Shown here: in pieces, positions 15,404 to 31,339 of the stretch
Layout: each line of letters begins with the position of its first letter
Position numbering within the stretch: position 1 is the stretch's first letter
DNA from: Bryobacteraceae bacterium
GTDB taxonomy: Bacteria > Acidobacteriota > Terriglobia > Bryobacterales > Bryobacteraceae
Reading direction: 5' to 3'
DNA length: 64,000 nt
Assembly: GCA_044358225.1 (NCBI GenBank)
Contig: JBIKOG010000008.1
Span: forward strand, 15,595-79,594
Program-made: the position numbers and the translations under genes
The notes under the pieces: generated by a model
Databases searched by the model: none
What the model was told of the DNA's origin: nothing
What the model saw: only the letters and a program-made list of their open reading frames with translations

Positions 15404-15474
15404 TTCTTCATTGGCGAAATACACGGCGGCGAAACGCACCGCTTAATCCAACCAAATCGGAGCTTGAAACACAC

Positions 15475-16221
15475 ATGAAGGGCATTATCCTGGCGGGGGG
15501 CAACGGCACACGGCTGATGCCGTTGACCGCGGTGACGAACAAGAGCTTGTTGCCGGTCTACGACCGTCCCATGATTTACTACCCGCTGCAGATGATGGCG
15601 GAAGCGGGCATTGAGGAAGTGCTCATCGTGACCGGCGGCGCCAACTGCGGCGAGATGATGCGGGTGCTGAAAGACGGCAGCCAGTTTGGGTTGAGCCGTT
15701 TGTACTTCACGGTGCAGGAAAAGGCCGGCGGCATTTCGCAGGCGCTGGCGTTGGCCGAGCAGTTCGCGCAGGGCGATAAGACCTTCGTGGTGCTGGGTGA
15801 CAATCTGGTTTTCGGCGGGAATGTGGCGGGCGCGGTGCGAGAGTTTGCGGCGCATTCGGAAGGCGCGAAGGTGTTTTTGAAACGGGTTGCGGATCCGGAA
15901 CGGTTCGGCATCGCGGGGATTTCGGATGGGCGGATTGCATCGATTGAAGAGAAGCCAAAGGCGCCGCAATCGAACCTGGCGGTTACGGGATTGTACCTGT
16001 ACGATGCGACGGTGTTCGATAAGATCCGGCAGTTGAAGCCGTCGGCGCGGGGGGAATTGGAAGTGACGGATTTGAACCGGTTGTACCTGGAGGACGAACA
16101 GTTGGGCTACGCGATGCTGGACGGCAACTGGATTGACGCGGGGACGTTCGATTCGCTGGCGGAGGCATCGGAGATGGCGCAGCAGGCGGCGGAGACGGTG
16201 CAACTGGCGGTGGCGGCGTGA
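15475..16221 (+). CDS. rfbA: Glucose-1-phosphate thymidylyltransferase (short form)
   Basis: 'MKGIILAGGNGTRLMPLTAVTNKSLLPVYDRPMIYYPL'. Followed by rfbC and rfbB. Confidence 0.8.
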   Translation: MKGIILAGGNGTRLMPLTAVTNKSLLPVYDRPMIYYPLQMMAEAGIEEVLIVTGGANCGEMMRVLKDGSQFGLSRLYFTVQEKAGGISQALALAEQFAQGDKTFVVLGDNLVFGGNVAGAVREFAAHSEGAKVFLKRVADPERFGIAGISDGRIASIEEKPKAPQSNLAVTGLYLYDATVFDKIRQLKPSARGELEVTDLNRLYLEDEQLGYAMLDGNWIDAGTFDSLAEASEMAQQAAETVQLAVAA

Positions 16222-16772
16222 GCGCGGTGATGGAGTGTCCGGTGCGGACGGAGATTCCGTCGTGCACGCCGGGGTTGGGGCATCTGATTATGAGCCCGAC
16301 GTCGGCCAAGTTGATCGACGGGGTGCTGGTGGAAAACGCCGCGCTGTGGCCGGACGATCGCGGCTGGTTCCAGGAGATCTTCCGCTTCGGGCGCGGGCTG
16401 GTGCAGAACTACCCGGCGGCCACGACGCAGGTTTCGGCGGCGGTGAGTTTTCCCTCCATCATCAAGGCGTTCCACATTCACCACTTCCAGACGGACGTGT
16501 GGGCGCCGATGACCGGACTATTCCAGGTGGCACTGGTGGACCTGCGGCCGGAGTCGCCAACGTTTGGCGAGAAGAACACGTTGTATGTGGGTGAACAGCG
16601 GCCGTGGCGCATCCTGATCCCGCCCGGCGTGGCCCACGGCTACAAGATCGTCAGCCCCGGCAGTGGGGTATTGGTGTACGCAACCGACCGTTTCTACGAC
16701 CCGGCCGACGAAGGCCGTATCGCCCACGACCATCCCGCGCTGGCCTATGACTGGTCCACCCAACACAAGTAA
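16218..16772 (+). CDS. rfbC: dTDP-4-dehydrorhamnose 3,5-epimerase
   Basis: 'DDRGWFQEIFR', 'KAFHIHH', 'PPGVAHGY'. Start is GTG 16218 (GTGA overlap with rfbA) or ATG 16290. Confidence 0.8.
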   Translation: MSAVMECPVRTEIPSCTPGLGHLIMSPTSAKLIDGVLVENAALWPDDRGWFQEIFRFGRGLVQNYPAATTQVSAAVSFPSIIKAFHIHHFQTDVWAPMTGLFQVALVDLRPESPTFGEKNTLYVGEQRPWRILIPPGVAHGYKIVSPGSGVLVYATDRFYDPADEGRIAHDHPALAYDWSTQHK

Positions 16773-16781
16773 AGGAACATC

Positions 16782-17810
16782 ATGCACATCTTTGTTACCG
16801 GCGGCGCCGGATTCATTGGCTCCCAGTTCATTCGCGATTGGGCGGAGAAGTTTCCCGAAGCGCACATCACCAACTTCGACAAGCTGACCTACGCCGGCAA
16901 TCTGGCGAATTTGACGGCGGTGGAAGGGCGCCGCAACTACAGCTTCGTGCGCGGCGACATCTGCGACCGCAACGCACTACTGGAAGCGATGCCGGCGAAT
17001 GTGGACGCCATCGTTCACTTCGCCGCCGAGTCCCACGTGGACCGCAGCATCACCGGCGCGGCCGAGTTCGTCCGGACCAATGTGATGGGGACGCAGGTGC
17101 TGCTGGACGTGGCTCGCGAGCGCGGCGCCAAACGGTTCCTGCACATCTCCACCGACGAAGTGGGCGGCACGATGGGGCCGGAGGAGTGGTTCTTCGAAGA
17201 CTCCAAGCTGGACCCGCGGAGCCCGTACGCCGCCAGCAAGACGGCGGCGGAACATCTGGTCCGCGCGGCCGGCGCCACGTTCGGCATGGACTATGTGATC
17301 ACCCGCACGAGCAACAACTACGGCCCGTATCAGTTTCCGGAGAAGCTTTTACCACTGGCGATTTGCAATGCGCTTTCGGGCCAGCCGATTCCGGTCTACG
17401 GCGACGGGCTGCAGATTCGCGATTGGGTTCACGTGGCCGACAATAGCAAGGCGCTGCAGTTGGCACTGTTACAGGGCAAGGCCGGGGAAACTTATCACAT
17501 CGGCGGGGGGAGCCCGCAGACAAACATCGACGTGTTGCGGACGCTGCTGTCGATGCTGTGTTGCCACGAATCGCTGATGAAGCGCGTCACCGACCGGCTT
17601 GGCCACGACCGGCGCTACGCCGTCAGCTACGCGAAGATTGAGCGGGAGCTGGGCTGGCGTCCGGAGATCTCTTTCACCACCGGGTTGCGCGCGACGATTC
17701 ACTGGTATCGCCAGAATCAGGAGTGGGTGAAGGCGGTTCGCAATGGCGAGTATTTGAACTACTACAAGGCGCAGTACGGGTTGAATCTGCCGGCCGGACA
17801 GGTTGTCTAG
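16782..17810 (+). CDS. rfbB: dTDP-glucose 4,6-dehydratase
   Basis: 'MHIFVTGGAGFIGSQF', 'FAAESHVDRS', 'YAASKTAAEHLV', 'DGLQIRDWVHV'. Confidence 0.92.
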   Translation: MHIFVTGGAGFIGSQFIRDWAEKFPEAHITNFDKLTYAGNLANLTAVEGRRNYSFVRGDICDRNALLEAMPANVDAIVHFAAESHVDRSITGAAEFVRTNVMGTQVLLDVARERGAKRFLHISTDEVGGTMGPEEWFFEDSKLDPRSPYAASKTAAEHLVRAAGATFGMDYVITRTSNNYGPYQFPEKLLPLAICNALSGQPIPVYGDGLQIRDWVHVADNSKALQLALLQGKAGETYHIGGGSPQTNIDVLRTLLSMLCCHESLMKRVTDRLGHDRRYAVSYAKIERELGWRPEISFTTGLRATIHWYRQNQEWVKAVRNGEYLNYYKAQYGLNLPAGQVV

Positions 17811-18905
17811 ATGGCGTTCGCGGAGGTGGCACTGGCGGCGTTGGCGATGGGTGTGAACTATACCGTCGCCCGGGGTACGAGAAGGCTGTGGGTCTTGCTA
17901 TCGGCGTGGACGACGATCAGCCTTTGCTCCGGCGTTGCCGAAGGGATCCGCTTCTACGAGTGGATGCCCGGCGCCACGTGGGTCCGCGCGCTGGGGTTTT
18001 TGTGGTTTTTGCTGGCATTGCCCGGGTATGCGCTGGCGCGGTTGTGGAAGCAATCGCGCGTGGAAGTGGACACGGGCCGGCGGCAATTGTTGCGCGCTGG
18101 CGCCACGCTGGCCGCGGCGCCGCTGGCGGCCACGGGGTTCGCGATTCACAAGGCGCGACAGGACGCCGAAGTGCGGGAAGTGGAACTGGCTATCCCGAAC
18201 CTTGCACCCGATCTGCAGGGCCTGCGACTGGTTCAGCTGAGCGACATCCACCTGGGCGCGTTCTTCTCGCAAGCGCAGTTGCGCCGGGTGGTGGAACAGG
18301 CCAACGGGCTGCGCGCCGATCTGGCTATCGTCACCGGTGACCTCATCAGTTCCTATGGCGACCCGTTGGAGGAGGCCATTGCCGAACTGGCGCGCCTGCG
18401 TCCGAGCGCCGGGATCTACGGGTGCCTGGGGAACCATGAGATTGTGGCGGAGTGCGAGGCGCCGGCGACGCAGTTGGCGGCCCGTCGCGGCATGCGGTTT
18501 TTGCGATCGCAATCGTCGACGCTGCGGTTTGGGCAGAGTAAGTTGAACATCGCGGGCGTGGACTATCAGCGCCTGGGCAGCCCGTATCTGGCGGATGCGG
18601 CGAGAATGGTGCGGCCGGGTGAGCTGAACCTGTTGCTTTCGCACAGTCCGGACGTGTTCCCGGTGGCGGTGCGGCAGAGGTGGGACGTTGTGTTATCGGG
18701 CCACACACACGGCGGACAGATCACGCTGGAGCACCTGGATTCGCGGTTGAATCCGGCACGTTTCTACACGCCCTACACCTACGGCAGGTACACGCAAGAC
18801 GGGTCGTCGCTCTTTGTCACCAGCGGACTTGGTACCGTGGGAGTGCCGGCGCGTTTGGGTACGAACCCGGAGATTGTCTCGATACGGCTCACCTCACGCG
18901 CCTAG
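17811..18905 (+). CDS. Membrane-anchored metallophosphoesterase (YkuE-like)
   Basis: N-terminal TM helices, then 'LVQLSDIHLG', 'IVTGDLIS', 'GNHE', 'LSGHTHGGQI'. Confidence 0.8.
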   Translation: MAFAEVALAALAMGVNYTVARGTRRLWVLLSAWTTISLCSGVAEGIRFYEWMPGATWVRALGFLWFLLALPGYALARLWKQSRVEVDTGRRQLLRAGATLAAAPLAATGFAIHKARQDAEVREVELAIPNLAPDLQGLRLVQLSDIHLGAFFSQAQLRRVVEQANGLRADLAIVTGDLISSYGDPLEEAIAELARLRPSAGIYGCLGNHEIVAECEAPATQLAARRGMRFLRSQSSTLRFGQSKLNIAGVDYQRLGSPYLADAARMVRPGELNLLLSHSPDVFPVAVRQRWDVVLSGHTHGGQITLEHLDSRLNPARFYTPYTYGRYTQDGSSLFVTSGLGTVGVPARLGTNPEIVSIRLTSRA

Positions 18906-18915
18906 GAGTTGGACC

Positions 18916-20229
18916 GTGAACCGCCGAAACTTTCTTGCTTCCGCTTTGGCCGCTAACGCTGCACCCGCGCCGGTCGTTCTGCTGGATGACGGCGGCTGGT
19001 GCTGGTTCGAAGACGAGCGCGCGTTGATTGTTGGCGATCACCTCATCTTCGGCACGGTGGCCACCGGCTACAAAGACCCTGCCATTACCGGGCAGATTCG
19101 CGCCACGCAGTACAACCTGAGAAGCGGCGCTTCCTCCACCTTCACGCTCCACGATCCGGCCAAGGACGAGAACCAGAAGCAGTGGACGGACGACCACAAC
19201 TCTCCGGCTTTCCTCCTCCGGCCCGACGGGAAGCTGCTGACCACCTACGCCCGCCACGGCACGCGCAATGAGATTCACTACCGCATCTCCACCGGCAAAG
19301 GGAGCGCCGCCCATTGGGAAGCGGAGCAGGTCTTCATCCCAAGCCGGAAGTCGCGCATTACCTACTCAAACCTCTACTACCTGAGCAAAGAACGCCGCCT
19401 GTACGACTTCTTCCGGGGATTCGACAACTCGTATAAGCCGTCCTACGCCTGGTCGGACGATCTGGGCAATACGTGGAAAGCTGGTGGCATCGTCATCGAT
19501 GTCCCGCTTCAATTCCGACACCGTCCTTACGCCAAATACTGCTCCAATAACACCGACACCATCCACATCGCCTACACCGAAGGTCACCCGCGCAACTTCG
19601 ACAACAGCATTTACCACGTGTTCTATCGCGATGGCCAACTGCACCGCTCCGATGGCACCGTGATCCGTTCGCTGCGAGAGGGACTGAAGGCGCCGGAAGA
19701 GGGAACCCGCATTTTCCAGGGCGGGCCGGAGGCCGTTGCGTGGACGACGGACTTCCACGTTCTTTCGAACGGCGAGTTGCTGCTTTTCTACACGGTGCAG
19801 AAGGACGGCGCGCGGCGAATGACGGAGCCGAACGGGTTCGACCATCGCTTCCGGCTAGCGCGATGGGATGGACGCGCCTGGCACGACCACGAGATCGCGC
19901 GCGCCGGCACCCGGCTCTATGCCGGAGAGGACAATTACACCGGGCTGGCTGCGATCGACCCGCACGACCCGAAGACGCTCTTCATCTCCACGAACATCGA
20001 CCCTAACTCCGGCGCCGCACTGCCCTATCGCGAGATATTCCGCGGGCGCACAGAGGACTTTGTCCGCTTCACGTGGACTCCGGTGACGGCGAACTCGGCG
20101 GCCGACAACGTGCGCCCGATCATCCCGGTCTGGCCTGGAAAGAAACGCGCACTCCTGTGGTTGCGGGGAAAGATGCGCGCCTACACCGACTACAGTTTCG
20201 AAGTCGTGGGCCTGTTTGAAAAACGCTAA
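18916..20229 (+). CDS. Tat-exported hypothetical protein, BNR_4/sialidase-like beta-propeller (from memory)
   Basis: GTG 18916 gives the twin-arginine signal 'NRRNFLASALAANAAPA'. 'HIAYTEGHPRNFDNSIYHVFYRDG' resembles the BNR-4 family. Confidence 0.5.
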   Translation: MNRRNFLASALAANAAPAPVVLLDDGGWCWFEDERALIVGDHLIFGTVATGYKDPAITGQIRATQYNLRSGASSTFTLHDPAKDENQKQWTDDHNSPAFLLRPDGKLLTTYARHGTRNEIHYRISTGKGSAAHWEAEQVFIPSRKSRITYSNLYYLSKERRLYDFFRGFDNSYKPSYAWSDDLGNTWKAGGIVIDVPLQFRHRPYAKYCSNNTDTIHIAYTEGHPRNFDNSIYHVFYRDGQLHRSDGTVIRSLREGLKAPEEGTRIFQGGPEAVAWTTDFHVLSNGELLLFYTVQKDGARRMTEPNGFDHRFRLARWDGRAWHDHEIARAGTRLYAGEDNYTGLAAIDPHDPKTLFISTNIDPNSGAALPYREIFRGRTEDFVRFTWTPVTANSAADNVRPIIPVWPGKKRALLWLRGKMRAYTDYSFEVVGLFEKR

Positions 20230-20263
20230 CCTGGCGCGGCCACGGGCTGGTAGTGTGTAAAGA

Positions 20264-21037
20264 GTGCCGCCAGAGATCGCCGAGTTTTCCCACGCATATT
20301 TCGCCCGGATGGCGGAGTTGGAAGACAAACACCCGTGGACGCGCCACATGCGCGAATTGACGTTGGACCTGCTGACCAGAGCCGGCGGCGATGGCTGCAA
20401 ACGGCGCCTGGATGTGGGCTGCGGAACCGGGCTTTTTCTAGACAACTGGCGGCGGCGCGGCACGGCGGAACGGTTGACGGGCGTGGACTTCGCCTACCCC
20501 GCGTTGGAGTTCGCCCGACAACGCACGGAAGCCGAATGGGTGACGGCCAGCGCGGCGGCCTTGCCCCTGCAGGATCAATCCTTCGACGCGATCCATTCCG
20601 CGGACGTTTTGCAGCATCTGGCAATCCACGAAGTAGGCCCGGCGTTTGAAGAGTTCGCGCGCGTGCTGAGCCCCGGCGGGCTGGTGGCGTTGCGACTGCG
20701 CGGCCCCCGCTGGCTGACGGCCACGCCCGATACCGACTACTCCGTCACGTTCACGCCCGCGCAAGTTCGGCAACAGTTGGAACGCTGCGGGTTCCAGGTG
20801 GTGTATCTCTCGCTGGTGAACACGCTGCCGTCGTTGGCGGCGGAGTTGCGGGAGCGGATGTCGGCGAACAGCCGGGGTGATGCGCCGGTGAAGGGCATCA
20901 GTTGCCATGCGGAAGGGGATCCGCGATCGGCGGGCCTGGCGCTGTATCTGCGAATGGAACGAGTCTGGTCCTACACGCTGGGCTTGCCGTTGCCCTTCGG
21001 GCACACCATTATCTGCGTCGCGAAAAAGCGGGGCTGA
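20264..21037 (+). CDS. Class I SAM-dependent methyltransferase
   Basis: 'RLDVGCGTGLFL' motif I, 'FDAIHSADVLQHL', 'LSPGGLVAL'. Confidence 0.75.
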   Translation: MPPEIAEFSHAYFARMAELEDKHPWTRHMRELTLDLLTRAGGDGCKRRLDVGCGTGLFLDNWRRRGTAERLTGVDFAYPALEFARQRTEAEWVTASAAALPLQDQSFDAIHSADVLQHLAIHEVGPAFEEFARVLSPGGLVALRLRGPRWLTATPDTDYSVTFTPAQVRQQLERCGFQVVYLSLVNTLPSLAAELRERMSANSRGDAPVKGISCHAEGDPRSAGLALYLRMERVWSYTLGLPLPFGHTIICVAKKRG

Positions 21038-21041
21038 GCGA

Positions 21042-23006
21042 TCAGTTCCCGGTGGGCTGGAACCGCAGGCGCAACCACACCTGCATGCCCATGGGATGGG
21101 CGCCGTAGATCGGCGACAGATTCGCCGGCAGTTGAAAGACTTGAAACTGGCCGCCCAACGCGGGACGGAGAAAGCTGCTCACCTTGGGGAGTTCGTAGGA
21201 ATACCCGGCGGTGTACGCCTTGATGCGCGTATACCGGTACTCCTCCAACAGACGCACGTAGGGCGCCTCTTCAAACAGCAGCAGCGAGTCCTTGTCCGTC
21301 AATTCCGCGCGGCCCCAGATCCAGTGCTTGTCCTTGAAAAACATCGTGGATTCGGCGGTGTAGGAGTTGAACGTCTGCCCCTGTACGCGGGTGGGCACCA
21401 GCACGATGTGTTCGCGTTGCCCGTTTGGCTTCCTAGGCGGCGCCGATTGCAGAATCGACAACAACTCGCCGTTGGGTTTCTGCGTGTAGGCCAGATCGTG
21501 ATTGCGGCCCCAGACAAGCGTCGTGGCCCAGTGGCCGCGCGCGGTTGGCAATACGTAGGTGGCGGAGGACGTCTGGCGGAAGGAATCGCGATCGGGGTGG
21601 GTGGCTTCGCGATTGTTAATGCGCCCGACGGAATACTGCATGGCCCAGCGGGAGGTTGGGGTGACGGTGACACGGGAGGCGAAGGAATTGATCGGGCCAA
21701 GTTCGATGCCCCAGCGCTTCTCATCCGGCTCGCGGCCGTGGAAACCGCTGGCCTCCAAAGTCACCCAGCGATGTGTCACACCCAATGTGGTCACGTTGGC
21801 GGCGATGTGTGTCGAATCCTGATAGTGGTGCGACATCACCGCCATCGGATTCTCCGATGTCGAGATGCGATGCGGGTAGGCGGTGGGTCCGATTGCCGGA
21901 TCGCCGCGCAGGCCCGCGTAGAGGTTCAACGTGGTGTTTTCGCTCAACCGGTATTGATACGACGCGCCCAGTTCCTTGACGAAGTCGTGCGGGTGCTGGC
22001 CGTTCAGAATCGGAATGTTCTTCCACGTTTCACCCGTCTGCAGCAGCAGCGGGTAGCGGCCATTGGTCACCGTCAGCGGCTCAATGGAGAACATCGTACG
22101 GACGGTGAAGATGCCACCCGCCAAGCGGCCGCTGGCCATCGGCATCACCCAGCCGGCGCCGAAGGTCTTGTCGCGCCCGCGCGGTCCGCCCTGATTGGTG
22201 TAAATGCCCCACAGCGTACCGTTGAACATCACATTCCAATTGCCGATCTGCTTGTGCAGCATCTGCATCGGCCGGGCGCCCGGCGTCTGGCTGGTGCCAC
22301 TGACGAACATGCCCGCGAACGCCGCCGAACTCGCCGTCATCCCCGCCGTCATCGTGCCGTCCATGACGGCCAGTTTCACGTCGCTCAGCGGTATGCCAGC
22401 GAAGATCCCCTCACCTGCCTGCCAGCCGTCGTAGCAATCGCCGCAGACGCCTTTTGACTCGGGCTTCTTCCCGTTCTTCGCCGGGGCCGTAGCCTTCGCC
22501 AGATCACTGCCACACGGGCACTCCGCTTCCAACGCGCACTGGCCGCAGCCGCCTTTCACGCAACACAAGAAGCGCTTCTCGCCCACCAGCGTTTTCTTGG
22601 CGGCCAGCAAAGCGGTCAGCCCCTCTTTCAACTCCGGGGGCAACTCGCCGGTGCCCGGCATGGCCTGCTTTTCCGCCGGCAGCAGTTTGATGTTCTCCGC
22701 CTTGATTCCCGGCAGGGATCCGCGACCGCTCTTCCATCCAGCCATGCACTCGCCGCAGGCGCCCATCCCGCGCATCACGTTCGCCGCGCACGCGCAGGAT
22801 CCGTTCTTGCGCATACACAGGTCGCAGCTTGGTTTCACGCAACAGGCATACCGGCCCTTGGCCTGCAGCGTCTTTTTCGCCGCCGCCAGCTTCGCCTGGG
22901 CCTGCTTCAAGTCTTTGTCCGCTTTGGTGGGGGTGGTGTTCCGCCGCCCGCCTTCATGGGCCAGCAGCAGGCTGGCGGTCATCAACAGTGTCAACGCTAG
23001 CCGCAT
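21042..23006 (-). CDS. Exported protein: two tandem 8-Cys modules + Met-rich linker + ~430-aa all-beta domain (function unknown)
   Basis: Signal peptide 'MRLALTLLMTASLLLA'. 'KGRYACCVKPSCDLCMRKNGSCAC..GACGECMAGW' and 'EKRFLCCVKGGCGQCALEAECPC..GVCGDCYDGW'. 'MDGTMTAGMTASSAAFAGM'. 'HPHDF', 'HHYQDSTH'. Confidence 0.75.
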   Translation of the reverse strand: MRLALTLLMTASLLLAHEGGRRNTTPTKADKDLKQAQAKLAAAKKTLQAKGRYACCVKPSCDLCMRKNGSCACAANVMRGMGACGECMAGWKSGRGSLPGIKAENIKLLPAEKQAMPGTGELPPELKEGLTALLAAKKTLVGEKRFLCCVKGGCGQCALEAECPCGSDLAKATAPAKNGKKPESKGVCGDCYDGWQAGEGIFAGIPLSDVKLAVMDGTMTAGMTASSAAFAGMFVSGTSQTPGARPMQMLHKQIGNWNVMFNGTLWGIYTNQGGPRGRDKTFGAGWVMPMASGRLAGGIFTVRTMFSIEPLTVTNGRYPLLLQTGETWKNIPILNGQHPHDFVKELGASYQYRLSENTTLNLYAGLRGDPAIGPTAYPHRISTSENPMAVMSHHYQDSTHIAANVTTLGVTHRWVTLEASGFHGREPDEKRWGIELGPINSFASRVTVTPTSRWAMQYSVGRINNREATHPDRDSFRQTSSATYVLPTARGHWATTLVWGRNHDLAYTQKPNGELLSILQSAPPRKPNGQREHIVLVPTRVQGQTFNSYTAESTMFFKDKHWIWGRAELTDKDSLLLFEEAPYVRLLEEYRYTRIKAYTAGYSYELPKVSSFLRPALGGQFQVFQLPANLSPIYGAHPMGMQVWLRLRFQPTGN

Positions 23007-23008
23007 AT

Positions 23009-24157
23009 CTACTTACCGCCGGCCACCACGGTGAAGGGGCCCGTCTCCACGACGCCGGCCCGCTGAATCTGCACCCACCCGCGGTAACGACCGGGCTTGG
23101 GATACCGGGCCAGGAACGCCAAATGCCCGTCCTTGCCCGCCTTCGGGTCCAGTTCATCGGGATGGGAATGGACGAACGTTTCGCCGTCCTCATGCACCAG
23201 GATCAGATGCCCCAGAGCGCCCAAATACGGCTGCACATCGTTCACTAGCGCCCCGGTCTTCGCATCGCGCACCACGCAGGCCATCCGCAACGTCTTGCCC
23301 GCGGTGAACTCCGTTTGCGCGAAAGCCACGCGGATGGAACCGGAGGCTGTTTCCCCAGTCAGCTTTTCCGCGGCGATCACAAACCGGTCCGACTTCTTCC
23401 CGCCGACTTTCATACGAACCGGAATCACCTGCCCGCCGGCACCCTTCGGAGCGACGTCCACGAACAGCGTGTAGTCACCGGCCTGCGGGAATGTGTAGCG
23501 AAGACGGAACGCGCCATCGGCGGCCATCTCCGGATGCTCGTGAGCGAAGACGCCCAGGTCCTCACGGACCACGATGAAGTGCATGAGCTTTTCGTGCTGC
23601 ACGTCGAACTCGCGAACCCGCGCGTTGTTCTGCGCGCGGGAAAACACCGCGATATCCAGGTCCACCGCCTCGCCCGCCTTCGGGCTCTTCGGCGTTGCGC
23701 GAACCTCCGCATAGAAGGGCCGGGGCTTGGCTTTGCGGTTCTTCGCCGCTACCGCATCGCCCACTTGGAGCGGAAACTGTACTTGAAACTCGGTACCGCC
23801 GGGAGGGGTGATGAACAACTGCAACCGATACTCTCCGCCGTGCGGGAACAGGGGGTGCACGCCGTACTCGCCGGGCACGCCTTCCGGGTGCGCGCTTTCG
23901 GTCATCTTCGCCATACCGGGCATCGTCGGCATGTCGATCACGCTCCGCGCCAGCGCCCGAATCACCGGCGCGGCGCCCATCACCGCATCCACCTGCGTGG
24001 CGTCCACAACGCGGTACTCGATCTGCATCTCTTCCTGTGCGGCCAGGCCATCGGCCGGCAATCGCAGGGTGACCTGGTACTTCCCGGCCCGCACCGCAGG
24101 CAATTCCGTCTGTCCCCAGACCACGCCCGCCAACATCAGGAGAGTTGTGAATCGCAT
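23009..24157 (-). CDS. Exported protein with three tandem beta-sandwich-like repeats carrying H-P-(E/D) His motifs and a Met-rich loop (function unknown)
   Basis: Signal peptide 'MRFTTLLMLAGVVWGQ'. 'MPTMPGMAKMTESAHPEG', 'LMHFIVVREDLGVFAHEHPE', 'LGHLILVHEDGETFVHSHPD'. TAATG overlap with the upstream gene. Confidence 0.75.
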   Translation of the reverse strand: MRFTTLLMLAGVVWGQTELPAVRAGKYQVTLRLPADGLAAQEEMQIEYRVVDATQVDAVMGAAPVIRALARSVIDMPTMPGMAKMTESAHPEGVPGEYGVHPLFPHGGEYRLQLFITPPGGTEFQVQFPLQVGDAVAAKNRKAKPRPFYAEVRATPKSPKAGEAVDLDIAVFSRAQNNARVREFDVQHEKLMHFIVVREDLGVFAHEHPEMAADGAFRLRYTFPQAGDYTLFVDVAPKGAGGQVIPVRMKVGGKKSDRFVIAAEKLTGETASGSIRVAFAQTEFTAGKTLRMACVVRDAKTGALVNDVQPYLGALGHLILVHEDGETFVHSHPDELDPKAGKDGHLAFLARYPKPGRYRGWVQIQRAGVVETGPFTVVAGGK

Positions 24158-26013
24158 TATCGAATCGCCACCAGCCCCGGGTTACTGCGCTGCCGGTTCA
24201 CACTGATCACCAGTTCCAACGCCGTTCCCGTCGCCGCATCCGCCGGCACCTGCACGTTGGCCTGCGCCAGCCCGACGAAGCCGGGCGTCAGGCCCAGAAA
24301 CAGCAGCGGTACTTCACGGCCGCCGATGGTCGCCGTCGAATCCAGCGCCGCCCGGTACAACGTCGTCAACGGCGCCGCGCGGCCCGCCGTCAGGTCGCCG
24401 TCCAGCGGACCAATGCCGGTGAGATAGATCGTCATCACCCGCCCGCGCGTCTCCGCGTTGGCTTCGGTGTTCAACGTGCCGTCCTGATTGATCGCCACCG
24501 CGCGCGTGCTGCCGGCGATCATAAAGATCCCCGGCGCGGCGGCACCAATGTTTACCGTCTCTTCGGAGCTCGCGCCCTGCCCGGTGGCGACGCGAATCTT
24601 CGCCTCGCCCTCCCGCAGATCGTAGGGCAGTTGCGCGTTGATCTGGTTCGGCGAAATGAAGACCAGCGGCAGGCGCGTCCCGTTGACCGTGACCGAAGTT
24701 CCGGCCATCTCCGTTGGCAGCGGCAACTCGCCGGCCTGCGTTAAACCGGTTGCGAAATTGATACCGAAAATCGAGATCAGCGCGCCTGGCGCCAGCGGCA
24801 CCGGCGCGGGCAGGAAGCTGGCCGCGTTGACGATGCCGCCCGGCGAGATGGCCGGCCGGATGGCGAAGCTGACTTTGCGAATCAGATAGTTCTGCCAGTC
24901 GGCGATCAGCACATCGCCGTTGTTATCCACCGCCACCGAAGACGGGAAGTTCAGCGGACTCTGCGTCGCCGGAATCCCCTCGGTACCGCGCCCGATCTGG
25001 CCGTTGCCGGCGATGGTGGAGATGGTCCCGTCCGGCGCCACGCGACGAACGCGATGGTTGCCCATGTCGGCGATATAAATACTACCGGCCGCGTCGACGG
25101 CGGTGGCGTTAGGCTGGCTGAGTTGGGCCGCGGTTGCGCGTCCGCCATCGCCGCTGAAGCCCGGCGCACCCGTTCCAGCCACGGTGGAGATGGCCCCGTT
25201 CGGCGCAATCCGGCGCACGCGATGGCTGCCCTGTTCGGTGACCAGCAGGTTGCCCGCGCGATCAAAAATCAGGTGCGAGGGGATCGACAGCGCGCTGCGC
25301 GTGGCGTCCGGACCATCGGCGCCGTTGCCCGGCAAACCGGTGCCGGCGATCGTCTGCAAGCGGCCATCCGCATTCATGCGGGCGATTCGGTTGGAGTGCA
25401 GTTCGGCGAAGTAGATCCGGCCTTCGCTGTCGACCGCGATGGAACTCGGCCAGTCCAACGGCGAAAGCGTGGCGGGAATCGACGGGGCAAAAAACGAATG
25501 CAGATTGCTGCCAATGATCGTAGTGATCGTCCCGTTCGGCGCCACTTGGCGGATGCGATTGTTCTTCTCGTCGCAAATCAAAAGCGCCCCATTAGGAAGC
25601 ACAATCGCATGCGAAGGGCCGTATAGTTTCGCCGCCGAGGCAGCTCCGCCATCGCCAGCTTCGGTCCCGCCGCCGAGCGGGGAACAACGGCTGGCATCGA
25701 TCGACGGCCGCTGCCCGCTGCCCGCCACCGTGGTGATGACTCCGTCCGGGGCGATGCGGCGAACGCGATTGGCATTCGTATCGGCGATGTAGATGTTCCC
25801 AGCCCGGTCAACGGAGAGGTGATTCATCTCCTCGAACCGCGCAGGGTCACATTCGTTCTGGATCCCAGCCAGCGTCAGAGAGGACAATGTCGCCTGCCCT
25901 CCGTCGCCGCCGAAACCGCGGGTGGTTCCCGCGATCGTCGAAATGATTCCGGTTTGCGCAAAAACAGGAGAAAGGAGAAGCGCGAGAGTTACTGGGAGCC
26001 GCATGGAAAACAT
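24157..26013 (-). CDS. Secreted NHL-repeat beta-propeller protein with Solibacter-type C-terminal domain
   Basis: Signal peptide. Six-fold 'G.iYiAD..NhR(V/I)RR(I/V)apdGtIsTvAG' NHL repeats. C-terminus 'GGIVNAASF..PGALISIFG..AAPGIF' (TIGR03437-like, from memory). Start is ATG 26013 or 26004. Confidence 0.8.
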   Translation of the reverse strand: MFSMRLPVTLALLLSPVFAQTGIISTIAGTTRGFGGDGGQATLSSLTLAGIQNECDPARFEEMNHLSVDRAGNIYIADTNANRVRRIAPDGVITTVAGSGQRPSIDASRCSPLGGGTEAGDGGAASAAKLYGPSHAIVLPNGALLICDEKNNRIRQVAPNGTITTIIGSNLHSFFAPSIPATLSPLDWPSSIAVDSEGRIYFAELHSNRIARMNADGRLQTIAGTGLPGNGADGPDATRSALSIPSHLIFDRAGNLLVTEQGSHRVRRIAPNGAISTVAGTGAPGFSGDGGRATAAQLSQPNATAVDAAGSIYIADMGNHRVRRVAPDGTISTIAGNGQIGRGTEGIPATQSPLNFPSSVAVDNNGDVLIADWQNYLIRKVSFAIRPAISPGGIVNAASFLPAPVPLAPGALISIFGINFATGLTQAGELPLPTEMAGTSVTVNGTRLPLVFISPNQINAQLPYDLREGEAKIRVATGQGASSEETVNIGAAAPGIFMIAGSTRAVAINQDGTLNTEANAETRGRVMTIYLTGIGPLDGDLTAGRAAPLTTLYRAALDSTATIGGREVPLLFLGLTPGFVGLAQANVQVPADAATGTALELVISVNRQRSNPGLVAIR

Positions 26014-26040
26014 GTTGGTCGTTAGCAGGACCGGACTCCT

Positions 26041-26080
26041 TGTATTGTACCGCTTACATTTGTATTGTACCGCTTACATT
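26041..26080. repeat. Perfect tandem duplication of a 20-mer (TGTATTGTACCGCTTACATT x2)
   Basis: Seen directly, 28 nt upstream of the NHL gene start. AT-richer than its surroundings. On the minus strand each unit contains TACAAT. Confidence 0.9.
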
Positions 26081-26087
26081 AGCGAAC

Positions 26088-27248
26088 TTACACCGTTACG
26101 GCTTTGCCGCGGCTCATGGAGCGAATCAGGGAAAGGTAACGATTCATGTGCGTCTGCGGTGCAAACGCCGTTAAATCGGCGGAAACCGGCTGCTCCCCGC
26201 CCAGCATGCCGCCCAGCTCCTCCGCACTCCGGAACACGCGCCCGCCCCCCGTCTGCGCCACCAATTCTGGCAGCGCTCCATGCGGCGAAACATAGACGGA
26301 CGTCTGCTGCTGCAAAGACTCCAACACCACCAGCCCAAACGTCTCATCGCAAACAGACGGCACGATCGTCGCCCGTGCGCGCCGGTACAGCGACGGCAAC
26401 TCCGCAAAGGGCACACGGCCCAGAAACTCAATATTCGGCGCCCCGGCCGCCATCGAACGGAGCTCCTGCTCCGCCTCCCCCGCCCCGGCGATCTTCAGCC
26501 GCAACCCGTTCTTCCGGAACAGCGGAAGCACCGTGTGGATGCCCTTCGCCTTTTCCAAACGGGCCACGATCAGGTAATAGTCTTCCCGTTCCATCTGCCC
26601 GGCACGCGCCGACCCCAGGAAATGCGGCAAAACCTTCATCGGCAGTTCGGGAAGGAATTCGCGCACCTTATCCTGCACAAACCGGCTGGGCGCCAGGAAC
26701 AGGTCGATGTTCTCCAGCCCGTCCCGAATGACGCCATTCTGGCGCCACAGTTGCGGCGGCCGGCCCCGGCGAATCGTGCAACTGTGGCACGTGCGCTGCG
26801 TACAGATCTCCTCGCCATTGCGAAACAGCACGTGGGAGGGACAAATCAACCAATACTCATGCAGCGTCATCAGCCGCAGTCCGGTGCCCCAACGGAATGC
26901 CTGCGGAGCGCCCAGCAAAGACGCGTTGTGCCAGTGCGTCACATCGAAACCACTGCTGAGAATCTCCCGCAGCGCGCCCGCGTACAGCCAATCGCGCCCG
27001 GCCACGTGTGCCGACAATGGCGCCAGCGTCTTGAACGGCGAACGCAGCGTATGCACGATCACCTTCTTGTGCAACGGAAATGGCGACGGCTGCACGGCGC
27101 CCCGCAACAGTTCGTAGGAATCCGCGCAATGGACGACTTCCACGTGGTGCCCGGCCTCGGCCAGCAGGTTCGCCAGCGACGCCAGAAAAATGGCGTCGCC
27201 GCCAAAATGCATCGGCGGGAAGAATGTCGTCAACAGGCAAAAACGCAT
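26088..27248 (-). CDS. Glycosyltransferase family 4
   Basis: 'MRFCLLTTFFPPMHFGGDAIF' and 'PSVCDETFGLVVLESLQQQTSVYVSPHGALPELV'. Confidence 0.8.
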   Translation of the reverse strand: MRFCLLTTFFPPMHFGGDAIFLASLANLLAEAGHHVEVVHCADSYELLRGAVQPSPFPLHKKVIVHTLRSPFKTLAPLSAHVAGRDWLYAGALREILSSGFDVTHWHNASLLGAPQAFRWGTGLRLMTLHEYWLICPSHVLFRNGEEICTQRTCHSCTIRRGRPPQLWRQNGVIRDGLENIDLFLAPSRFVQDKVREFLPELPMKVLPHFLGSARAGQMEREDYYLIVARLEKAKGIHTVLPLFRKNGLRLKIAGAGEAEQELRSMAAGAPNIEFLGRVPFAELPSLYRRARATIVPSVCDETFGLVVLESLQQQTSVYVSPHGALPELVAQTGGGRVFRSAEELGGMLGGEQPVSADLTAFAPQTHMNRYLSLIRSMSRGKAVTV

Positions 27249-27277
27249 GAAGAGGTCTCTGTTAGTCTAGGAGATGA

Positions 27278-28423
27278 TTGAACCTCTTTGCCAGAACACA
27301 GCGTCATCTCCGGCTGACGTTACGGAATTACGGTGTCGGCGAGCGGATTGGAAATCGGCCCGCGCCGCCCTTCCTGATCCTCTTCATTAACTCCATCTGC
27401 AACCAGACCTGCGAGCACTGTTTTTATTGGCGCAACCTCAATCGCAAGGACGATCTGACCGTTGACGAGTTGCGGTCGCTCTCCCAAGAACTCGGCTCGA
27501 TCGAGAACCTGAACCTCTCCGGCGGTGAACCCTTCCTGCGCAAGGAGTTCGGTGAAATCTGCCGCTTTTTCATCCAGAACAACGGCGTGAAGCAGATCTA
27601 CGTGCCCACCAACGGCACGTTCACCGATCGCACCATCGCGGCGCTGGAAGAGGTCCTCCGCGAGCCGTCGTTAACCCTGTTTGCCGTGGAACTTTCGCTC
27701 GATGGCATGGCGGACTACCACGACCGATTCCGCGGAATGAAGAACGCCTTCGCCCGATCCATGGAGACCTATCAGGCGTTGGCGAAGCTCCAACAGCGCG
27801 ACCCGCGGCTGCGCATTCACGCCATCTCCACCGCCACTTCAGAAAACATGGGCGAGATCGCCGAACTCACCCGCTACCTCTACGAAAACTGTCCGGCGAT
27901 GGACCACCACAACCTGGCCCTCATCCGCGGCGACCGCAAGAACCCCTCGCTCGTCGGCCCGACTCTCGACAACTATCGCGAACTCTACCGCTACGTCCAG
28001 TCCGTGTGGGCGCCGCGCGAAGAGAACCGCTTCGGCAGCATCGTCGAACCCATGCTGCAGTGGGCGAAGGTGAAGACCGCCATCGAACAGCGCCAGGTCG
28101 TCCCGTGCCGCGCCGGGCGGATGAGCGCGGTGGTCTATGCCAACGGCGACGTCAGCTTCTGCGAAACTCACGCCCCGCTGGGCAATCTCCGCCAAACCAG
28201 CTTCACGGAAATGTGGAATTCACCGGAAGCCGAAACCCTGCGCCAGTCCATTGACGAACGCGCCTGCTGGTGCACCAACGAAGTCTTCCTCTGGCCCAGC
28301 ATCGTGTTCCAGCCGCAGCAATTGGTCCGCGCCATGGCTCTGTCCAAACCGTGGAAGAAGCCCGACACGGTCGACAAGCCCCCCTCGCCGCGCCCATCGA
28401 ACGATCTCATCAACATCGGCTAG
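27278..28423 (+). CDS. Radical SAM enzyme with partial SPASM/twitch C-terminal domain
   Basis: '[11 protein letters not shown]' CxxxCxxC, 'LSGGEPFL', and C-terminal '[21 protein letters not shown] ... ERACWCTNE'. TTG start 4 nt after AGGAG. Confidence 0.8.
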
Positions 28424-29343
28424 GCGCGCAGCATCCACCGCGGCCCCAGCCAGCGCATCCCGGGCCATCGGCGCACCGCGCGGTACAGCGCCACCACCCG
28501 CTGCGCCAACCAGCCCATCTGCGGCGCATACAGCGGCGCGGCCTCTGTCGACCCGCTTGCCCACCCCGCCTCCCGAGCCAGCGCCATCCCCTCCCGCGCA
28601 CCGCGAAGTTGAATCCGATACGGGTGCAAATCCCCTCGCCGCCATGCGACATAGCCGGCCTGCCAACCCCGAGGCAGCCAGCCCACGCCCCACAAATGCA
28701 CGTGCGGCTCCGGCACCGGCGCCCAGCGATTGTTGCTGGTCAGCAGCAGTGAACGGCCCACGCGCCGCATCTCGCGCAGCGCCAGCGGGGCGTCGCGCAG
28801 ATGCTCCAGCGTGTCGAACGAAGTCAACCGAAAACCCGCGCCGCTTGGGAACGGCAGATGCTCCGCATTCGCGCAAACCAGCTGGCCGGCCACCCCGGCC
28901 TCCCGCAGCCGCAGCGCACCCAGCACCAGCCATCGAAACGCAATGTCGACGCCCACGCCGCCACCAGCCGCGATCAGCACCGCCCCCGTCGAACAGCCCA
29001 CATCCAACACCGGTCCGCCGCCGCGCCCATACGCCAACATCTCCCGCGCAATCGCCACTTCCGCCAGCGCTCGAGCGGTCCACAACTCCGCCAGGTCCGC
29101 CGGATCGTCTGGCGTAATCGAGTAGTAGTAGCGCACGGCCTCGGCGAAGGACATTCCACGCGTGGCCAATTCCAATGCCTCGCCCTTGGCCCGATCGGCC
29201 GCAATGTCGATGTACGGATCGGCAAACAGCCGGAAATCAGGGATGCCGCAGATCACCGGAAACCGCAGCCCGCAGGCCGCACAGGCGAACCCCGGCGCCT
29301 CGTTCCGCAACTCCGACTTGCACTGGGGACAGACGAATTCCAT
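28420..29343 (-). CDS. Trm112-like zinc-ribbon + class I SAM methyltransferase
   Basis: Start ATG 29343. '[31 protein letters not shown]', then '[12 protein letters not shown]'. Last gene of the 12-gene operon. Confidence 0.75.
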
Positions 29344-29345
29344 GG

Positions 29346-30203
29346 CTAATCCGTATCGCTGCAACTCGTCCCCGCCCCGCCCAGAAAGCCCACCATCTCC
29401 CCGGCAGCCCAAGCCGCGTAGTAGACAGCCAGTAGCGGTGCCACCACGGCAAAGCGTCCCGCCTCGCCGTTCTGCACGGCCGCCCGCAACCCGCGCCAAA
29501 ACAGCAGCGCCGCGACGAAGAAGAACACCGCCGAATGCGGCTTGCCGCAGCGCGCGCCGTAGCACCGCCCATGCCGGTACCGCAGCGCAACGTACTCCAA
29601 TAACCCACGCTGCTGTTGCTGTGTGACGCAGGCCTCCGGCACATACCAGAACGGCCCGCGCTCGCGCCGCAGCACCGTGTTGAACTCCGCCTCCCAGAAT
29701 CCATCGCTCCACTCGGTAGCAAAGGAAAGCAACTCATCCCGCCGGTACAACGCGTTGTTCCCCGGCAGATGCTGGCAATACCCTGCCCGCCCCGGCGGCA
29801 GAAACGCCGTATACCGCGTGAAGTAATGCGCCCAGCCCAGCCAGCTCGTCCGCCCGTTCCGCACCGGCCCACCCCAGCAACTGGCCGGATGTTCCGCAGC
29901 CGCGCGCAGCAGCACCCGCGCCCAATCGGCATTCACAGTGCAGTGGTCTTCGGTAATCAGGATGAACTCGCCCGCCGCGGCCCGCACCCCATCCCGCCGC
30001 AACTGCGGCACGCTGCGCCGCCCCTCCGCGCGCACCAGTCGCACGCCCTGCAGCCCGGCCGCCATCGCCGCCGTCTCATCGGCAGCCGAATACGCCACCA
30101 CAATCTCCGCGTCCAACCCAACACACGCCGCCCGCATACTCTCCACACAACGAACCAACGTCGACGTCGCCCGCCGCACCGGAATCACAATCGAAAGCGT
30201 CAC
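29346..30203 (-). CDS. GT2-like glycosyltransferase (short family, paralog 1)
   Basis: 'MTLSIVIPVRRATSTLVRCVESM', 'ILITEDHC', 'GGPVRNGRTSWLGWAHYFTRYTAFLPP'. GTGA overlap upstream. Confidence 0.7.
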   Translation of the reverse strand: MTLSIVIPVRRATSTLVRCVESMRAACVGLDAEIVVAYSAADETAAMAAGLQGVRLVRAEGRRSVPQLRRDGVRAAAGEFILITEDHCTVNADWARVLLRAAAEHPASCWGGPVRNGRTSWLGWAHYFTRYTAFLPPGRAGYCQHLPGNNALYRRDELLSFATEWSDGFWEAEFNTVLRRERGPFWYVPEACVTQQQQRGLLEYVALRYRHGRCYGARCGKPHSAVFFFVAALLFWRGLRAAVQNGEAGRFAVVAPLLAVYYAAWAAGEMVGFLGGAGTSCSDTD

Positions 30204-31339
30204 TCGCCCACCAATTCTTCCAACACCCGCGCCAACGCCCGCGCACCGCGTTCCCAGGAAAACTCAGCCGCCCGCAGCAGCGCCCGCCGCCGCAGTTCGG
30301 CGCGCAAAGCCGGGTTATCCACCACGGCTCCCAGTTCTTCCGCCCATTGCCGACGCGCCACCCGCACCGCGTCCCCGCCCACCTCTTCCAGCGCATGTCC
30401 GCCGGCCACCACACACGCGCAACCGCACGCCATCGCCTCCACCAGCGGCAGTCCAAACCCCTCTTCCAGCGACGGCATGGCAAACACCATGCACCGATTG
30501 TAGAGTCCGGCGAGTTCCTCGTCGGACACATATCCGGCGAACTCTATTCGGTCCCTCATGTCCAGCGCCACTGCCTCCGCGCGTAGCTGTTCGTAGCACC
30601 CGCGGAACCCGTCGTTTTTGTAATCCCCCACCAGCACCAGCCGTAGCGACGGCAGCTTCGACACAGCCCGAATCAACGTTCCCAGATTCTTGTTCGGGCT
30701 AATCCCGCCAACGGCCAGAACGAATGGTTCTTCCTTGGCGGCCGACGGCCGAAACACCGGCGCCGGCCCTTCGGAGACAACACTGATGCGCCGTGGGTGC
30801 AAAGAAAAATGCGCCGCGATGCTGTCGCTCGAATACTCGGAAACCGTGACAATCCGCGCCGCCTGCGCCAGCGCCAATCGCACCTTCCAATCCCAGAACA
30901 GCTTCTGTTTCCTCCCGGAAAAGGCCCACTGCGGAAACCGGTCGGCCATCGTGTCGTGAATCCCCAGGGCCACCGGCATGCGCCCCAGAATCGGGAAGTA
31001 GGAGTACACAGTGGGAAACCAGAAAGCGTCCAACTTCGCCCTGGCCACCACGGCACTCATCCGCAGCAGGTCTGTCACGCTGCGCGCGCTGTCCGCCGTT
31101 GCTCCGGCGCTCACGCTGCCGGCTGTACCCGCGGCAACCCACCGCACATTCGGCGCCTCGATCGTGTCGCTCTGCTCCTGATCCAGGAACACCGTAAAGC
31201 GCCACTGCGGCCGCACCCGCGCCAGTTCCGGCAGCAACTCCCGCAGGAAACGGCCGTACCCCCGGCGGTTGCTCCAGGTGCCACCGTCGATGCCGATTTC
31301 GAGCGGTCTAGTAGTTATGCTGCGTTCCTGAGGAGCCAA
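30200..31339 (-). CDS. Glycosyltransferase family 4
   Basis: 'LEIGIDGGTWSNRRGYGRF' and 'MPSLEEGFGLPLVEAMACGCACVVAGGHALEEV'. The only in-frame start is TTG 31339. Confidence 0.8.
   Translation of the reverse strand: MAPQERSITTRPLEIGIDGGTWSNRRGYGRFLRELLPELARVRPQWRFTVFLDQEQSDTIEAPNVRWVAAGTAGSVSAGATADSARSVTDLLRMSAVVARAKLDAFWFPTVYSYFPILGRMPVALGIHDTMADRFPQWAFSGRKQKLFWDWKVRLALAQAARIVTVSEYSSDSIAAHFSLHPRRISVVSEGPAPVFRPSAAKEEPFVLAVGGISPNKNLGTLIRAVSKLPSLRLVLVGDYKNDGFRGCYEQLRAEAVALDMRDRIEFAGYVSDEELAGLYNRCMVFAMPSLEEGFGLPLVEAMACGCACVVAGGHALEEVGGDAVRVARRQWAEELGAVVDNPALRAELRRRALLRAAEFSWERGARALARVLEELVGE

Follow-up and report, generated by a model that had tools for sequence, protein, structure and literature searches.

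The stretch of DNA analysed here (hereafter the window) comprises 64,000 nt from a Bryobacteraceae bacterium, a soil acidobacterium (assembly GCA_044358225.1, contig JBIKOG010000008.1, positions 15,595-79,594 of the forward strand). Three adjacent minus-strand genes within it most likely form a co-transcribed, exported trio that represents a new version of bacterial envelope copper handling. From upstream to downstream, they are:

24157..26013, minus strand: gene 1, 618 aa, NHL propeller with Ig-like tail domains
23009..24157, minus strand: gene 2, 382 aa, three Ig-like domains of YtkA type
21042..23006, minus strand: gene 3, 654 aa, 8-Cys modules and an outer-membrane beta-barrel

The junction between genes 1 and 2 reads 'cga TAATG cga', the final A of the gene 1 TAA stop codon being the first A of the gene 2 ATG (a 1-base overlap at 24157), and the junction between genes 2 and 3 reads 'aag TAG at ATG cgg' (aagTAGatATGcgg), which leaves a 2-nt gap at 23007-23008. 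An earlier sequence-only reading of this DNA had described the three minus-strand open reading frames (ORFs) with this overlap and gap, a signal peptide on each product, and a series of Cys, Met and His strings in genes 2 and 3. Direct reading of the sequence bears this out: every quoted string is present, and by inspection each product begins with a hydrophobic, signal-peptide-like segment (MFSMRLPVTLALLLSPVFA preceding Q in gene 1, MRFTTLLMLAGVVWG preceding Q in gene 2, and MRLALTLLMTASLLLA preceding H in gene 3). The same reading recognised no enzyme, transporter or regulator domain in genes 2 and 3, and this does not hold; gene 2 encodes a triple YtkA-like protein, and gene 3 an outer-membrane barrel with the porin fold, a fold of transporter type.

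The complete gene 2 product matches Pfam YtkA (PF13115) at 5.4e-11 (43.4 bits, gathering cut-off 25.9), and its AlphaFold2 (AF2) model consists of three beta-sandwich domains (predicted local distance difference test (pLDDT) 91.1, predicted template-modelling score (pTM) 0.86). A Foldseek search with this model returns generic Ig/FN3 tandems and nothing more specific, and there is no match to Pfam CopC (PF04234) at E<=1. The features of gene 2 are:

23753..24094, minus strand, aa 22-135: domain 1, canonical YtkA/CrdA-like, 32.9 bits to YtkA when scanned alone (cut-off 25.9)
23903..23932, minus strand: Met motif M76-P-T-M79-P-G-M82-A-K-M85 (MxxMPGMxxM), predicted Cu(I) site together with H90
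23012..23725, minus strand, aa 145-255 and 262-382: domains 2 and 3, divergent YtkA-like sandwiches, each with an invariant H…H-x-H-P-(E/D) cluster

Domain 2 on its own gives a weak YtkA match (16 bits), and domain 3 has no Pfam match but is related to domain 2 by BLASTP at 3e-7. Across 44 homologues (44-92% identity), the invariant residues are M76, P77, M79, M82, H90, E92 and H106 in domain 1, H188, H193, H206, H208 and P209 in domain 2, and H317, H330, H332 and P333 in domain 3. The MPTMPGMAKM string and the H-P-(E/D) motifs to which the sequence-only reading had drawn attention are therefore not only present but have an invariant core of Met and His residues. With an above-cut-off match and conserved His and Met residues, the protein can be assigned by sequence to the YtkA-like domain family PF13115.

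The profile of these homologues also detects a PDB entry, 9ll2_A (110 aa, annotated as 'Copper resistance protein'), at E 3.8e-4 and 22.8 bits, with an alignment of 66 residues (gene 2 aa 65-130) that runs through MPEMPGMPAM. The corresponding stretch of 9ll2_A, MMPEMPGMPAMKEM, matches the motif published for Helicobacter pylori CrdA (MMXEMPGMXXMXEM), and by motif identity PDB 9LL2 would be CrdA; a literature search found no publication for this entry. CrdA, CopC and PcoC share this MXXMPGM core as their Cu(I) Met site (PMC9182242). YtkA itself is CtaK, a Bacillus subtilis lipoprotein that is required alongside Sco in CuA assembly (PMC9145763, PMC13344008), and its conserved His and Met residues are the proposed copper ligands (PMC9145763). 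The copper importer YcnJ has a C-terminal YtkA domain that is partly redundant (PMC9145763, PMC13344008), and beyond these no YtkA domain had been studied experimentally as of 2025 (PMC12362106). Gene 2 is accordingly best described as a candidate periplasmic copper chaperone.

Gene 3 has no match in Pfam, NCBIfam or the PDB sequences, whether it is used as a single sequence or as a profile. Its AF2 model (pLDDT 82.7) has an N-terminal part made of two repeats (aa 24-216) and a C-terminal part made of long antiparallel strands (aa ~230-654). The features of gene 3 are:

22956..22958, minus strand: His17, putative first mature residue (A-x-A followed by H-E-G-G), invariant in 48 homologues
22359..22937, minus strand, aa 24-112 and 118-216: tandem 8-Cys repeats, two copies, predicted periplasmic
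21045..22319, minus strand, aa 230-654: beta-barrel domain, about 16-18 strands (DSSP), porin-like by Foldseek
21807..21998, minus strand, aa 337-400: His loop region with Q-H338-P-H340-D, H379-R380 and H393-H394-x2-D397-S-T-H400

Conservation was read from 48 homologues with 49-84% identity. The residue preceding H17 is always small (A, G or C, followed by H and then E or D), and because H17 is itself invariant, it is the predicted N-terminal residue of the mature protein. Each of the two repeats consists of a long helix followed by CC-x4-C-x2-C-x6-C-x-C-x(10-29)-C-x2-C…GW, and the eight Cys are invariant over 23 aligned copies of the repeat; across the 48 homologues, each of the 16 Cys is either invariant or conserved to at least 90%. 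This dense, invariant pattern of CC, CxC and CxxC is metallothionein-like, with disulfides and metal thiolates being indistinguishable in silico. Four CxxC are present and none is followed by His, so that gene 3 has no heme motif. A profile of the repeat has no significant match in Pfam or the PDB; likenesses to an HMA CxxC protein (E 0.19) and to carbon monoxide dehydrogenase (CODH, 0.64) were insignificant and were not used. A database search with the Cys domain alone recovers only fragments of gene 3's own family, and the domain is restricted to the N-terminus of that barrel family.

The best Foldseek matches of the gene 3 model in the PDB are general porins (Omp38, OmpF and OmpK35, E 1e-10 to 1e-8), with TM scores of 0.5-0.68 (normalised to target) and sequence identities of 6-11%. 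In the DSSP assignment, the strand connections alternate between short turns of 2-7 residues and long loops (335-342, 369-401, 424-440, 464-474, 510-543, 574-590 and 626-638), and every invariant His/Asp/Glu/Arg motif falls in a long loop, on the side of the barrel away from the short turns. Porins usually have such loops facing the cell exterior or folded into the lumen, and the same would apply here. The residues that are invariant in the homologues are Q337-H338-P339-H340, H379, R380, H393, H394, D397, T399, H400, G424-R425-E426-P427 and E429, with D341 conserved to at least 90%.

The Met residues of gene 3 behave differently. The patch MDGTMTAGMTASSAAFAGM is poorly conserved, with M223 alone reaching 90%, and 'MPMASG', within a predicted barrel strand (E280-295), has an invariant M288 and an A291 conserved at the 90% level. 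A degenerate Met linker at aa 214-233 stands directly before a conserved 'SGTSQxP'. Of the candidate ligands of gene 3, the 16 Cys, the loop His cluster and the N-terminal His predicted above are thus conserved, and the Met patches mostly are not. Judged by these alignments, the ligand-like residues of genes 2 and 3, save most of the gene 3 Met, are under strong selection.

Gene 1 is more conventional. It matches Pfam TEN_NHL (1.6e-34), NHL (5.8e-25) and TIG (6e-06) and the NCBIfam 'Solibacter C-terminal' domain TIGR03437 (3.8e-65), giving an exported six-bladed NHL beta-propeller followed by a TIG/Ig-like domain and then by the TIGR03437 domain. No conserved Cys/Met ligand pattern was found among 15 syntenic orthologues, and the conservation of the NHL blades is ordinary. 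A second NHL-repeat protein, a paralogue of gene 1 (phmmer E 2e-21), is encoded at 43693-45300 of the window on the plus strand.

The distribution of these genes was examined in a scan of one genome per species, from which 80 loci were retained; 90 loci in all, each with a match to a hidden Markov model (HMM) of the barrel, were classified by further HMMs for the Cys repeat and for genes 1 and 2, and are cited below by number (L001 and so on). The NHL-YtkA-barrel trio recurs with overlapping or abutting ORFs at 73% (L001), 52% (L004/5) and 50% (L010) identity, with different flanks each time. The full trio, and with it any gene 1 upstream of gene 2, is confined to Bryobacterales-type loci, a few of which belong to metagenome-assembled genomes (MAGs) labelled Acidobacteriales/Acidobacteriaceae; other lineages lack gene 1, which is a lineage-specific accessory of the module. 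The pair of genes 2 and 3 occurs without it in Bryobacter spp., Solibacteraceae, Blastocatellia and Chthonomonadales (Armatimonadota), and spans three phyla-level groups (Bryobacterales, Blastocatellia and Chthonomonadales). A third form, in which the barrel has neither the Cys domain nor gene 2, accounts for 62 loci, nearly all from Terriglobia-type acidobacteria (one is labelled Bryobacterales and one Binatia); Occallatibacter savannae AB23 is a cultured carrier of this form.

Because gene 2 lies directly upstream of Cys-type gene 3 in 26/27 Cys-type loci (exceptions being L017 and the incomplete contig L009) and in 0/62 barrel-only loci, the conserved core is the pair formed by gene 2 and Cys-type gene 3. 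The three-gene unit that the sequence-only reading proposed to look for in other genomes is therefore real in Bryobacterales-type loci, but across lineages only genes 2 and 3 are kept together. In one lineage, L004 (5743-6981, minus strand), a gene for a protein with DUF2092 and a thioredoxin/redoxin fold (TlpA-like) is divergent from the trio, and its product could hold the exported Cys reduced.

The barrel family is large, with 3,908 clusters at E<=1e-3 and 1,001 at E<=1e-30 in a representative library of 1.84 billion proteins (clusters at 50% identity), and the genome scan placed relatives in at least 590 genomes. Pfam, NCBIfam and the PDB sequences gave no match for the family; one distant relative has a sub-threshold BBP2 match, and nothing stronger was seen among porin models. 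In an alignment of 43 distant members with a mean column identity of 18%, the loop residues H338, H340, H379, R380, H393, H394, D397, H400, E426 and R431 (gene 3 numbering) are invariant, and the same loop residues are conserved in the barrel-only relatives. In place of the Cys domain, most but not all barrel-only relatives have post-signal leaders rich in His and in MPGM, MQGM or MDM repeats (for example MPGMQMPGAGQQHGGHAQMPGMQM and SMPGMDMSQMPGMNM, and HSMGGMDSGKDQGMMRLMGEMH in Occallatibacter), at the same position as the degenerate Met linker of gene 3.

A census of 43 selected long family members revealed Pfam fusions to cytochrome c (4), SCO1/SenC (3), YHS (2), YtkA (2), plastocyanin/azurin cupredoxin (2), Cupredoxin_1 (1), Cu-oxidase_2 (1) and NHL (1). 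Each fused member is one ORF that encodes a signal peptide, the domain, a His/Met-rich linker and the barrel, and the fused domains keep their expected motifs, including the Sco CxxxC (CGGAC, CPDIC), the heme CxxCH and the type-1 C…H…M. Examples are P0365 and P0397 (SCO1-barrel), P0358 and P0286 (cytochrome c-barrel) and P0394 (cupredoxin-barrel), and P0273 has a 200-aa Met-rich leader. In L022:9701-11335, a single YtkA/CrdA-like domain with IDMPSMPGM is joined directly to the barrel. The fusions look like a modular 'copper head + barrel' design, and by sequence the members of the family appear to be systematically coupled to copper modules, namely PcoB-like leaders, SCO1, cupredoxin, YHS, YtkA and the 8-Cys domain.

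Four loci have genes for heavy-metal pumps of the resistance-nodulation-division (RND) superfamily, of CusA/CzcA type, no more than 10 kb from the barrel. In L078:2651-11149 and L086:2384-9492, the barrel gene directly follows an operon for an outer-membrane factor, a membrane fusion protein and the CusA/CzcA-type RND on the same strand; in L090:3795-11176, two small ORFs separate the RND operon from the barrel; and in L029:2407-11227, the RND operon is on the opposite strand, ~2.4 kb away. A TIGR00914 match was confirmed for the RNDs of L078 (1078 bits) and L086. By the transmembrane-helix-4 signature, a rule that we take from the literature on heavy-metal efflux RNDs (HME-RNDs), those of L078, L090 and L029 are CusA-like (AIG…DA…VEN/TEN) and that of L086 is CzcA-like (DFG…DG…VEN).

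Other neighbours of the relatives include small secreted Cys/His proteins (~105-130 aa) with the pattern 'C-H-x-H … P … Y/H-x-C-C-Q-x-G-H' and the ending '…PP..PLR[ILV]'. Genes for these proteins are directly upstream of the barrel in 28/62 barrel-only loci (e.g. L030:5319-5678, L034:9264-9614 and L050:9258-9629) and upstream of gene 2 in pair-type loci (L019:8418-8744, L020:5562-5882 and L023-L025); none is found in the window. A 217-aa Met-rich protein (MSMSPDMDMH…) ending in TTLRI is encoded just upstream in L064 and L090, and cytochrome c genes with His-rich tails adjoin barrel-only members in 6 loci. The small Cys/His proteins with LRI tails and the other unnamed neighbours have no Pfam or NCBIfam match.

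Taken together, the trio is probably an envelope copper-trafficking module organised around this previously unnamed outer-membrane barrel family. The barrel of gene 3 would provide a copper-selective passage through the outer membrane, with the six invariant loop His and the accompanying Asp, Glu and Arg serving as a selectivity or binding site. The two 8-Cys modules and the predicted N-terminal His would hang into the periplasm as a metal acceptor or donor of thiolate or His-brace type. CopC and YcnI have amino-terminal His sites, which the N-terminal His of gene 3 would resemble. Gene 2 would be the soluble periplasmic partner, with Cu(I) carried by the Met site of domain 1 and Cu(II) by the His clusters, and copper would pass between the barrel, the tethered Cys domain and gene 2. 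Two directions are suggested by the relatives: PcoB-like leaders and CusA/CzcA neighbours hint at efflux or detoxification, and the YtkA and SCO1 links hint at supply to cuproenzymes. We lean slightly toward efflux or buffering.

The closest known system in logic would be PcoB/CopB with a periplasmic Met-motif chaperone (PcoC, CopC or CrdA). In PcoB/CopB, as proposed here for gene 3, an outer-membrane beta-barrel bears an N-terminal extension that binds metal in the periplasm. With 12 strands, the PcoB barrel is smaller than the porin-sized one of gene 3, and PcoB is not among the top 50 Foldseek matches of gene 3; nor does gene 3 match Pfam CopB (PF05275) at E<=1. We know of no PcoB counterpart of the loop His cluster, and the trio operon has no PcoA-type multicopper oxidase. 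Where PcoB has a disordered His/Met N-terminal domain, which is necessary for copper resistance (PMC12509749), gene 3 has folded 8-Cys modules, and it is the barrel-only relatives, with their MPGM, MQGM and DH… repeats, whose leaders are Met/His-rich like that of PcoB (PMC12509749).

On the periplasmic side, YtkA/CtaK and the YtkA domain of YcnJ share with gene 2 domain 1 an above-cut-off YtkA match, conserved His and Met residues and an extracytoplasmic location. Gene 2 differs from YtkA/CtaK in having three domains, two of them divergent and with HxHP clusters, in lacking a lipobox, and in its diderm host, where it is encoded beside an outer-membrane barrel and not beside oxidase or CopCD genes; no oxidase gene adjoins the trio or the Cys-type loci of its relatives. 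H. pylori CrdA (crdAB-czcBA) and the Cu(I) site of CopC/PcoC have the MxxMPGMxxM motif of gene 2, and CrdA partners an outer-membrane or efflux component in the periplasm, as is proposed for gene 2. CrdA is, however, a single small domain without His, whereas gene 2 has an invariant His and two more domains, and unlike the CrdA locus the trio has no adjacent RND genes in the window.

Two other families of barrels invite comparison. Cyc2, like some members of the barrel family, joins an N-terminal periplasmic or lumenal domain to a 16-18-strand outer-membrane barrel, and some family members are cytochrome c fusions. Gene 3, however, has no CxxCH, and Cyc2 barrels are poorly conserved whereas the loops of the gene 3 family carry invariant motifs. 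Cyc2 is defined by PxFAR[Q/K][T/Y] ahead of CXXCH (PMC8406198), and membership was rejected on the absence of this motif from gene 3 and from the cytochrome-fused relatives P0358 and P0286. General porins (OmpF/OmpC/Omp38) have the same antiparallel barrel of 16-18 strands and are the best structural matches, but gene 3 has no Pfam or NCBIfam porin match, its loop His/Asp/Glu/Arg residues are invariant, and it has an extra N-terminal domain of 200 aa. Because the defining features of the CopB, Cyc2 and annotated porin families were looked for and are absent, gene 3 is not a member of any of them.

The sequence-only reading had proposed an undescribed envelope metal system of copper type outside the cop/cus/pco layouts. 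The YtkA and 9LL2 matches, the synteny, the copper-domain fusions and the CusA/CzcA neighbours of relatives all strengthen this proposal, and it is from them that we infer copper as the metal, an assignment of the same kind as in that reading. The word 'undescribed' suits the barrel family and the 8-Cys domain, which are new here, but not for the kind of system, since envelope copper homeostasis is already known. Several observations weigh against copper trafficking. No relation of the barrel to PcoB/CopB or to any solved protein could be detected by sequence, and the placement of its loop His cluster relative to the pore comes from the DSSP strand pattern alone. The 16 exported Cys could equally form eight structural disulfides. 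The 9LL2 match is modest at 22.8 bits, with a CrdA identity that is motif-based only, and the Czc-like character of the L086 RND points to divalent cations. Neither the window nor ~20 related loci have a copper sensor, P-type ATPase or multicopper oxidase next to the trio, and the trio of the window lies inside a polysaccharide-biosynthesis cluster (15019-21037 and 26088-33483). For every member of the family, moreover, the copper role is an in silico one.

Among the other explanations, the same architecture could carry a different cargo, either Zn, Cd, Co or Ni (Czc-type) or a thiophilic metal (Hg, Cd or Ag), with the 8-Cys domain as a metallothionein-like periplasmic buffer. The density of CC, CxC and CxxC in the repeats would suit such a buffer, His-rich clusters fit Zn or Ni as well, the L086 pump has the CzcA-type signature, and a match to the HME-RND family leaves the metal unspecified. 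The MxxMPGM motif, the YtkA, SCO1, cupredoxin and YHS partners and the Met-rich leaders are nevertheless typical of Cu(I)/Ag(I), and the remaining three RNDs with a readable signature are CusA-like, and we consider another metal unlikely. It is also conceivable, if improbable, that the barrel is an outer-membrane redox conduit or metalloenzyme in which the six His hold copper or iron and the periplasmic modules pass electrons, as a copper-based counterpart of the Cyc2-type porin-cytochromes (e.g. for the oxidation of Fe(II), Mn(II) or Cu(I) at the surface). The cytochrome c and type-1 cupredoxin fusions, with CxxCH and C…H…M in continuous ORFs, and the cytochrome c genes beside barrel-only members are what such a conduit would predict, and porin loops are seldom so conserved unless they form a functional site. 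Set against this are the lack of a heme motif in gene 3, the lack of the Cyc2-defining motif in the cytochrome-fused members, and the fact that most members have only Met/His leaders or Cys modules, which are ligands of transfer type rather than redox type; a Sec-type signal peptide also speaks against preassembled cofactors. A bolder form of this idea, to which we likewise give little credence, is that the barrel is an active copper-centred redox or metalation machine widespread in Acidobacteriota, which would hold one or two Cu inside by its six invariant loop His and receive electrons or copper from its various heads (8-Cys, Sco, cupredoxin, cytochrome c or YtkA).

The surroundings of the trio raise a further explanation, in which all three genes belong to a cluster for exopolysaccharide (EPS) or O-antigen, with gene 3 as a porin for glycan export or anchoring, genes 1 and 2 as surface proteins that bind or modify the polymer, and the Cys as disulfides. 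One flank encodes an NTP-transferase, a sugar isomerase, an RmlB-like dehydratase, a metallophosphoesterase, a BNR (BNR_4) protein and a methyltransferase, and the other a family 4 glycosyltransferase (GT4), a radical SAM/SPASM protein, a methyltransferase, GT2, GT4 and GT2. These rml-type sugar-nucleotide, glycosyltransferase and methyltransferase genes and the radical SAM/SPASM gene favour a role in polysaccharide export, as do the sugar-modifying genes beside L001, L004 and L010, and barrels with periplasmic N-domains do serve polysaccharide export (AlgE, PgaA and BcsC). A census of neighbours nevertheless led to the rejection of polysaccharide export as a general explanation. The 111 genes that flank 21 Cys-type loci belong most often to the TPR (4), GT2 (3) and methyltransferase (3) families, and among 148 neighbours from 26/62 barrel-only loci no family exceeds 6 and no sugar family is dominant. 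Polysaccharide export would, in addition, leave unexplained the invariance of the Met/His/Cys ligands, the YtkA/CrdA homology, the copper-domain fusions and the CusA neighbours, and we regard it as highly unlikely. Because the flanks are not conserved across related loci, the polysaccharide setting is only local, and the module is autonomous. The least probable explanation, which we strongly disfavour, is that gene 3 is an ordinary diffusion porin with a decorative N-domain, in a fortuitous gene order and with no dedicated system. General porins are indeed its best structural matches and no annotated family matches it, but genes 2 and 3 remain paired across phyla-level groups, their ORFs overlapping or almost abutting, the loop residues are invariant at 18% overall column identity, and the presence of gene 2 tracks the Cys domain (26/27 vs 0/62 loci).

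If copper trafficking by the trio is confirmed, the barrel would be a new outer-membrane component of bacterial copper homeostasis, and the little-studied family of YtkA chaperones would be extended to diderm bacteria. Acidobacteriota are among the most abundant soil bacteria, and to our knowledge the movement of copper across their outer membrane is essentially undescribed; the family would also offer a testable marker of copper handling in soil metagenomes.

The absence of adjacent metal genes that the sequence-only reading had reported is confirmed for ~6 kb on either side of the trio, where the genes encode methyltransferases, the BNR protein, the metallophosphoesterase, glycosyltransferases and the radical SAM/SPASM protein. 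A radical SAM/SPASM gene is also near the trio in L004. One feature directly upstream of gene 1 may be regulatory:

26014..26087, no strand: intergenic region upstream of gene 1, 20-bp tandem repeat and palindrome, possible operator

This region contains a perfect 20-bp tandem repeat (TTGTATTGTACCGCTTACAT, two copies) at 26040-26079. Each repeat unit holds TGTA-N5-TACA, and the junction of the two units forms TACAnnTGTA at 26055-26064, the sole match in the 64-kb window against 0.05 expected. This palindrome is similar to the 'cop box' of CopY/BlaI type. The same sequence, whether palindrome or tandem repeat, is not conserved in related loci, and it is kept as a lead only; similar palindromes are located ~45-60 nt upstream of gene 1 in L004 (TACA-N6-TGTA) and L010 (TACA-N4-TGTA). 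Promoter and terminator scans of 20.5-27.6 kb gave 0 promoter-like sites, and terminator-like sites at background level.

Finally, the GC skew of the window changes from +0.2 to +0.34 (1-15 kb) to -0.2 to -0.43 (28-64 kb), with the change of sign near 19000-22000. The amplitude is unusually large and is independent of gene orientation, and the change from plus to minus looks like a replication terminus near the convergent junction between gene 3 and the methyltransferase gene.

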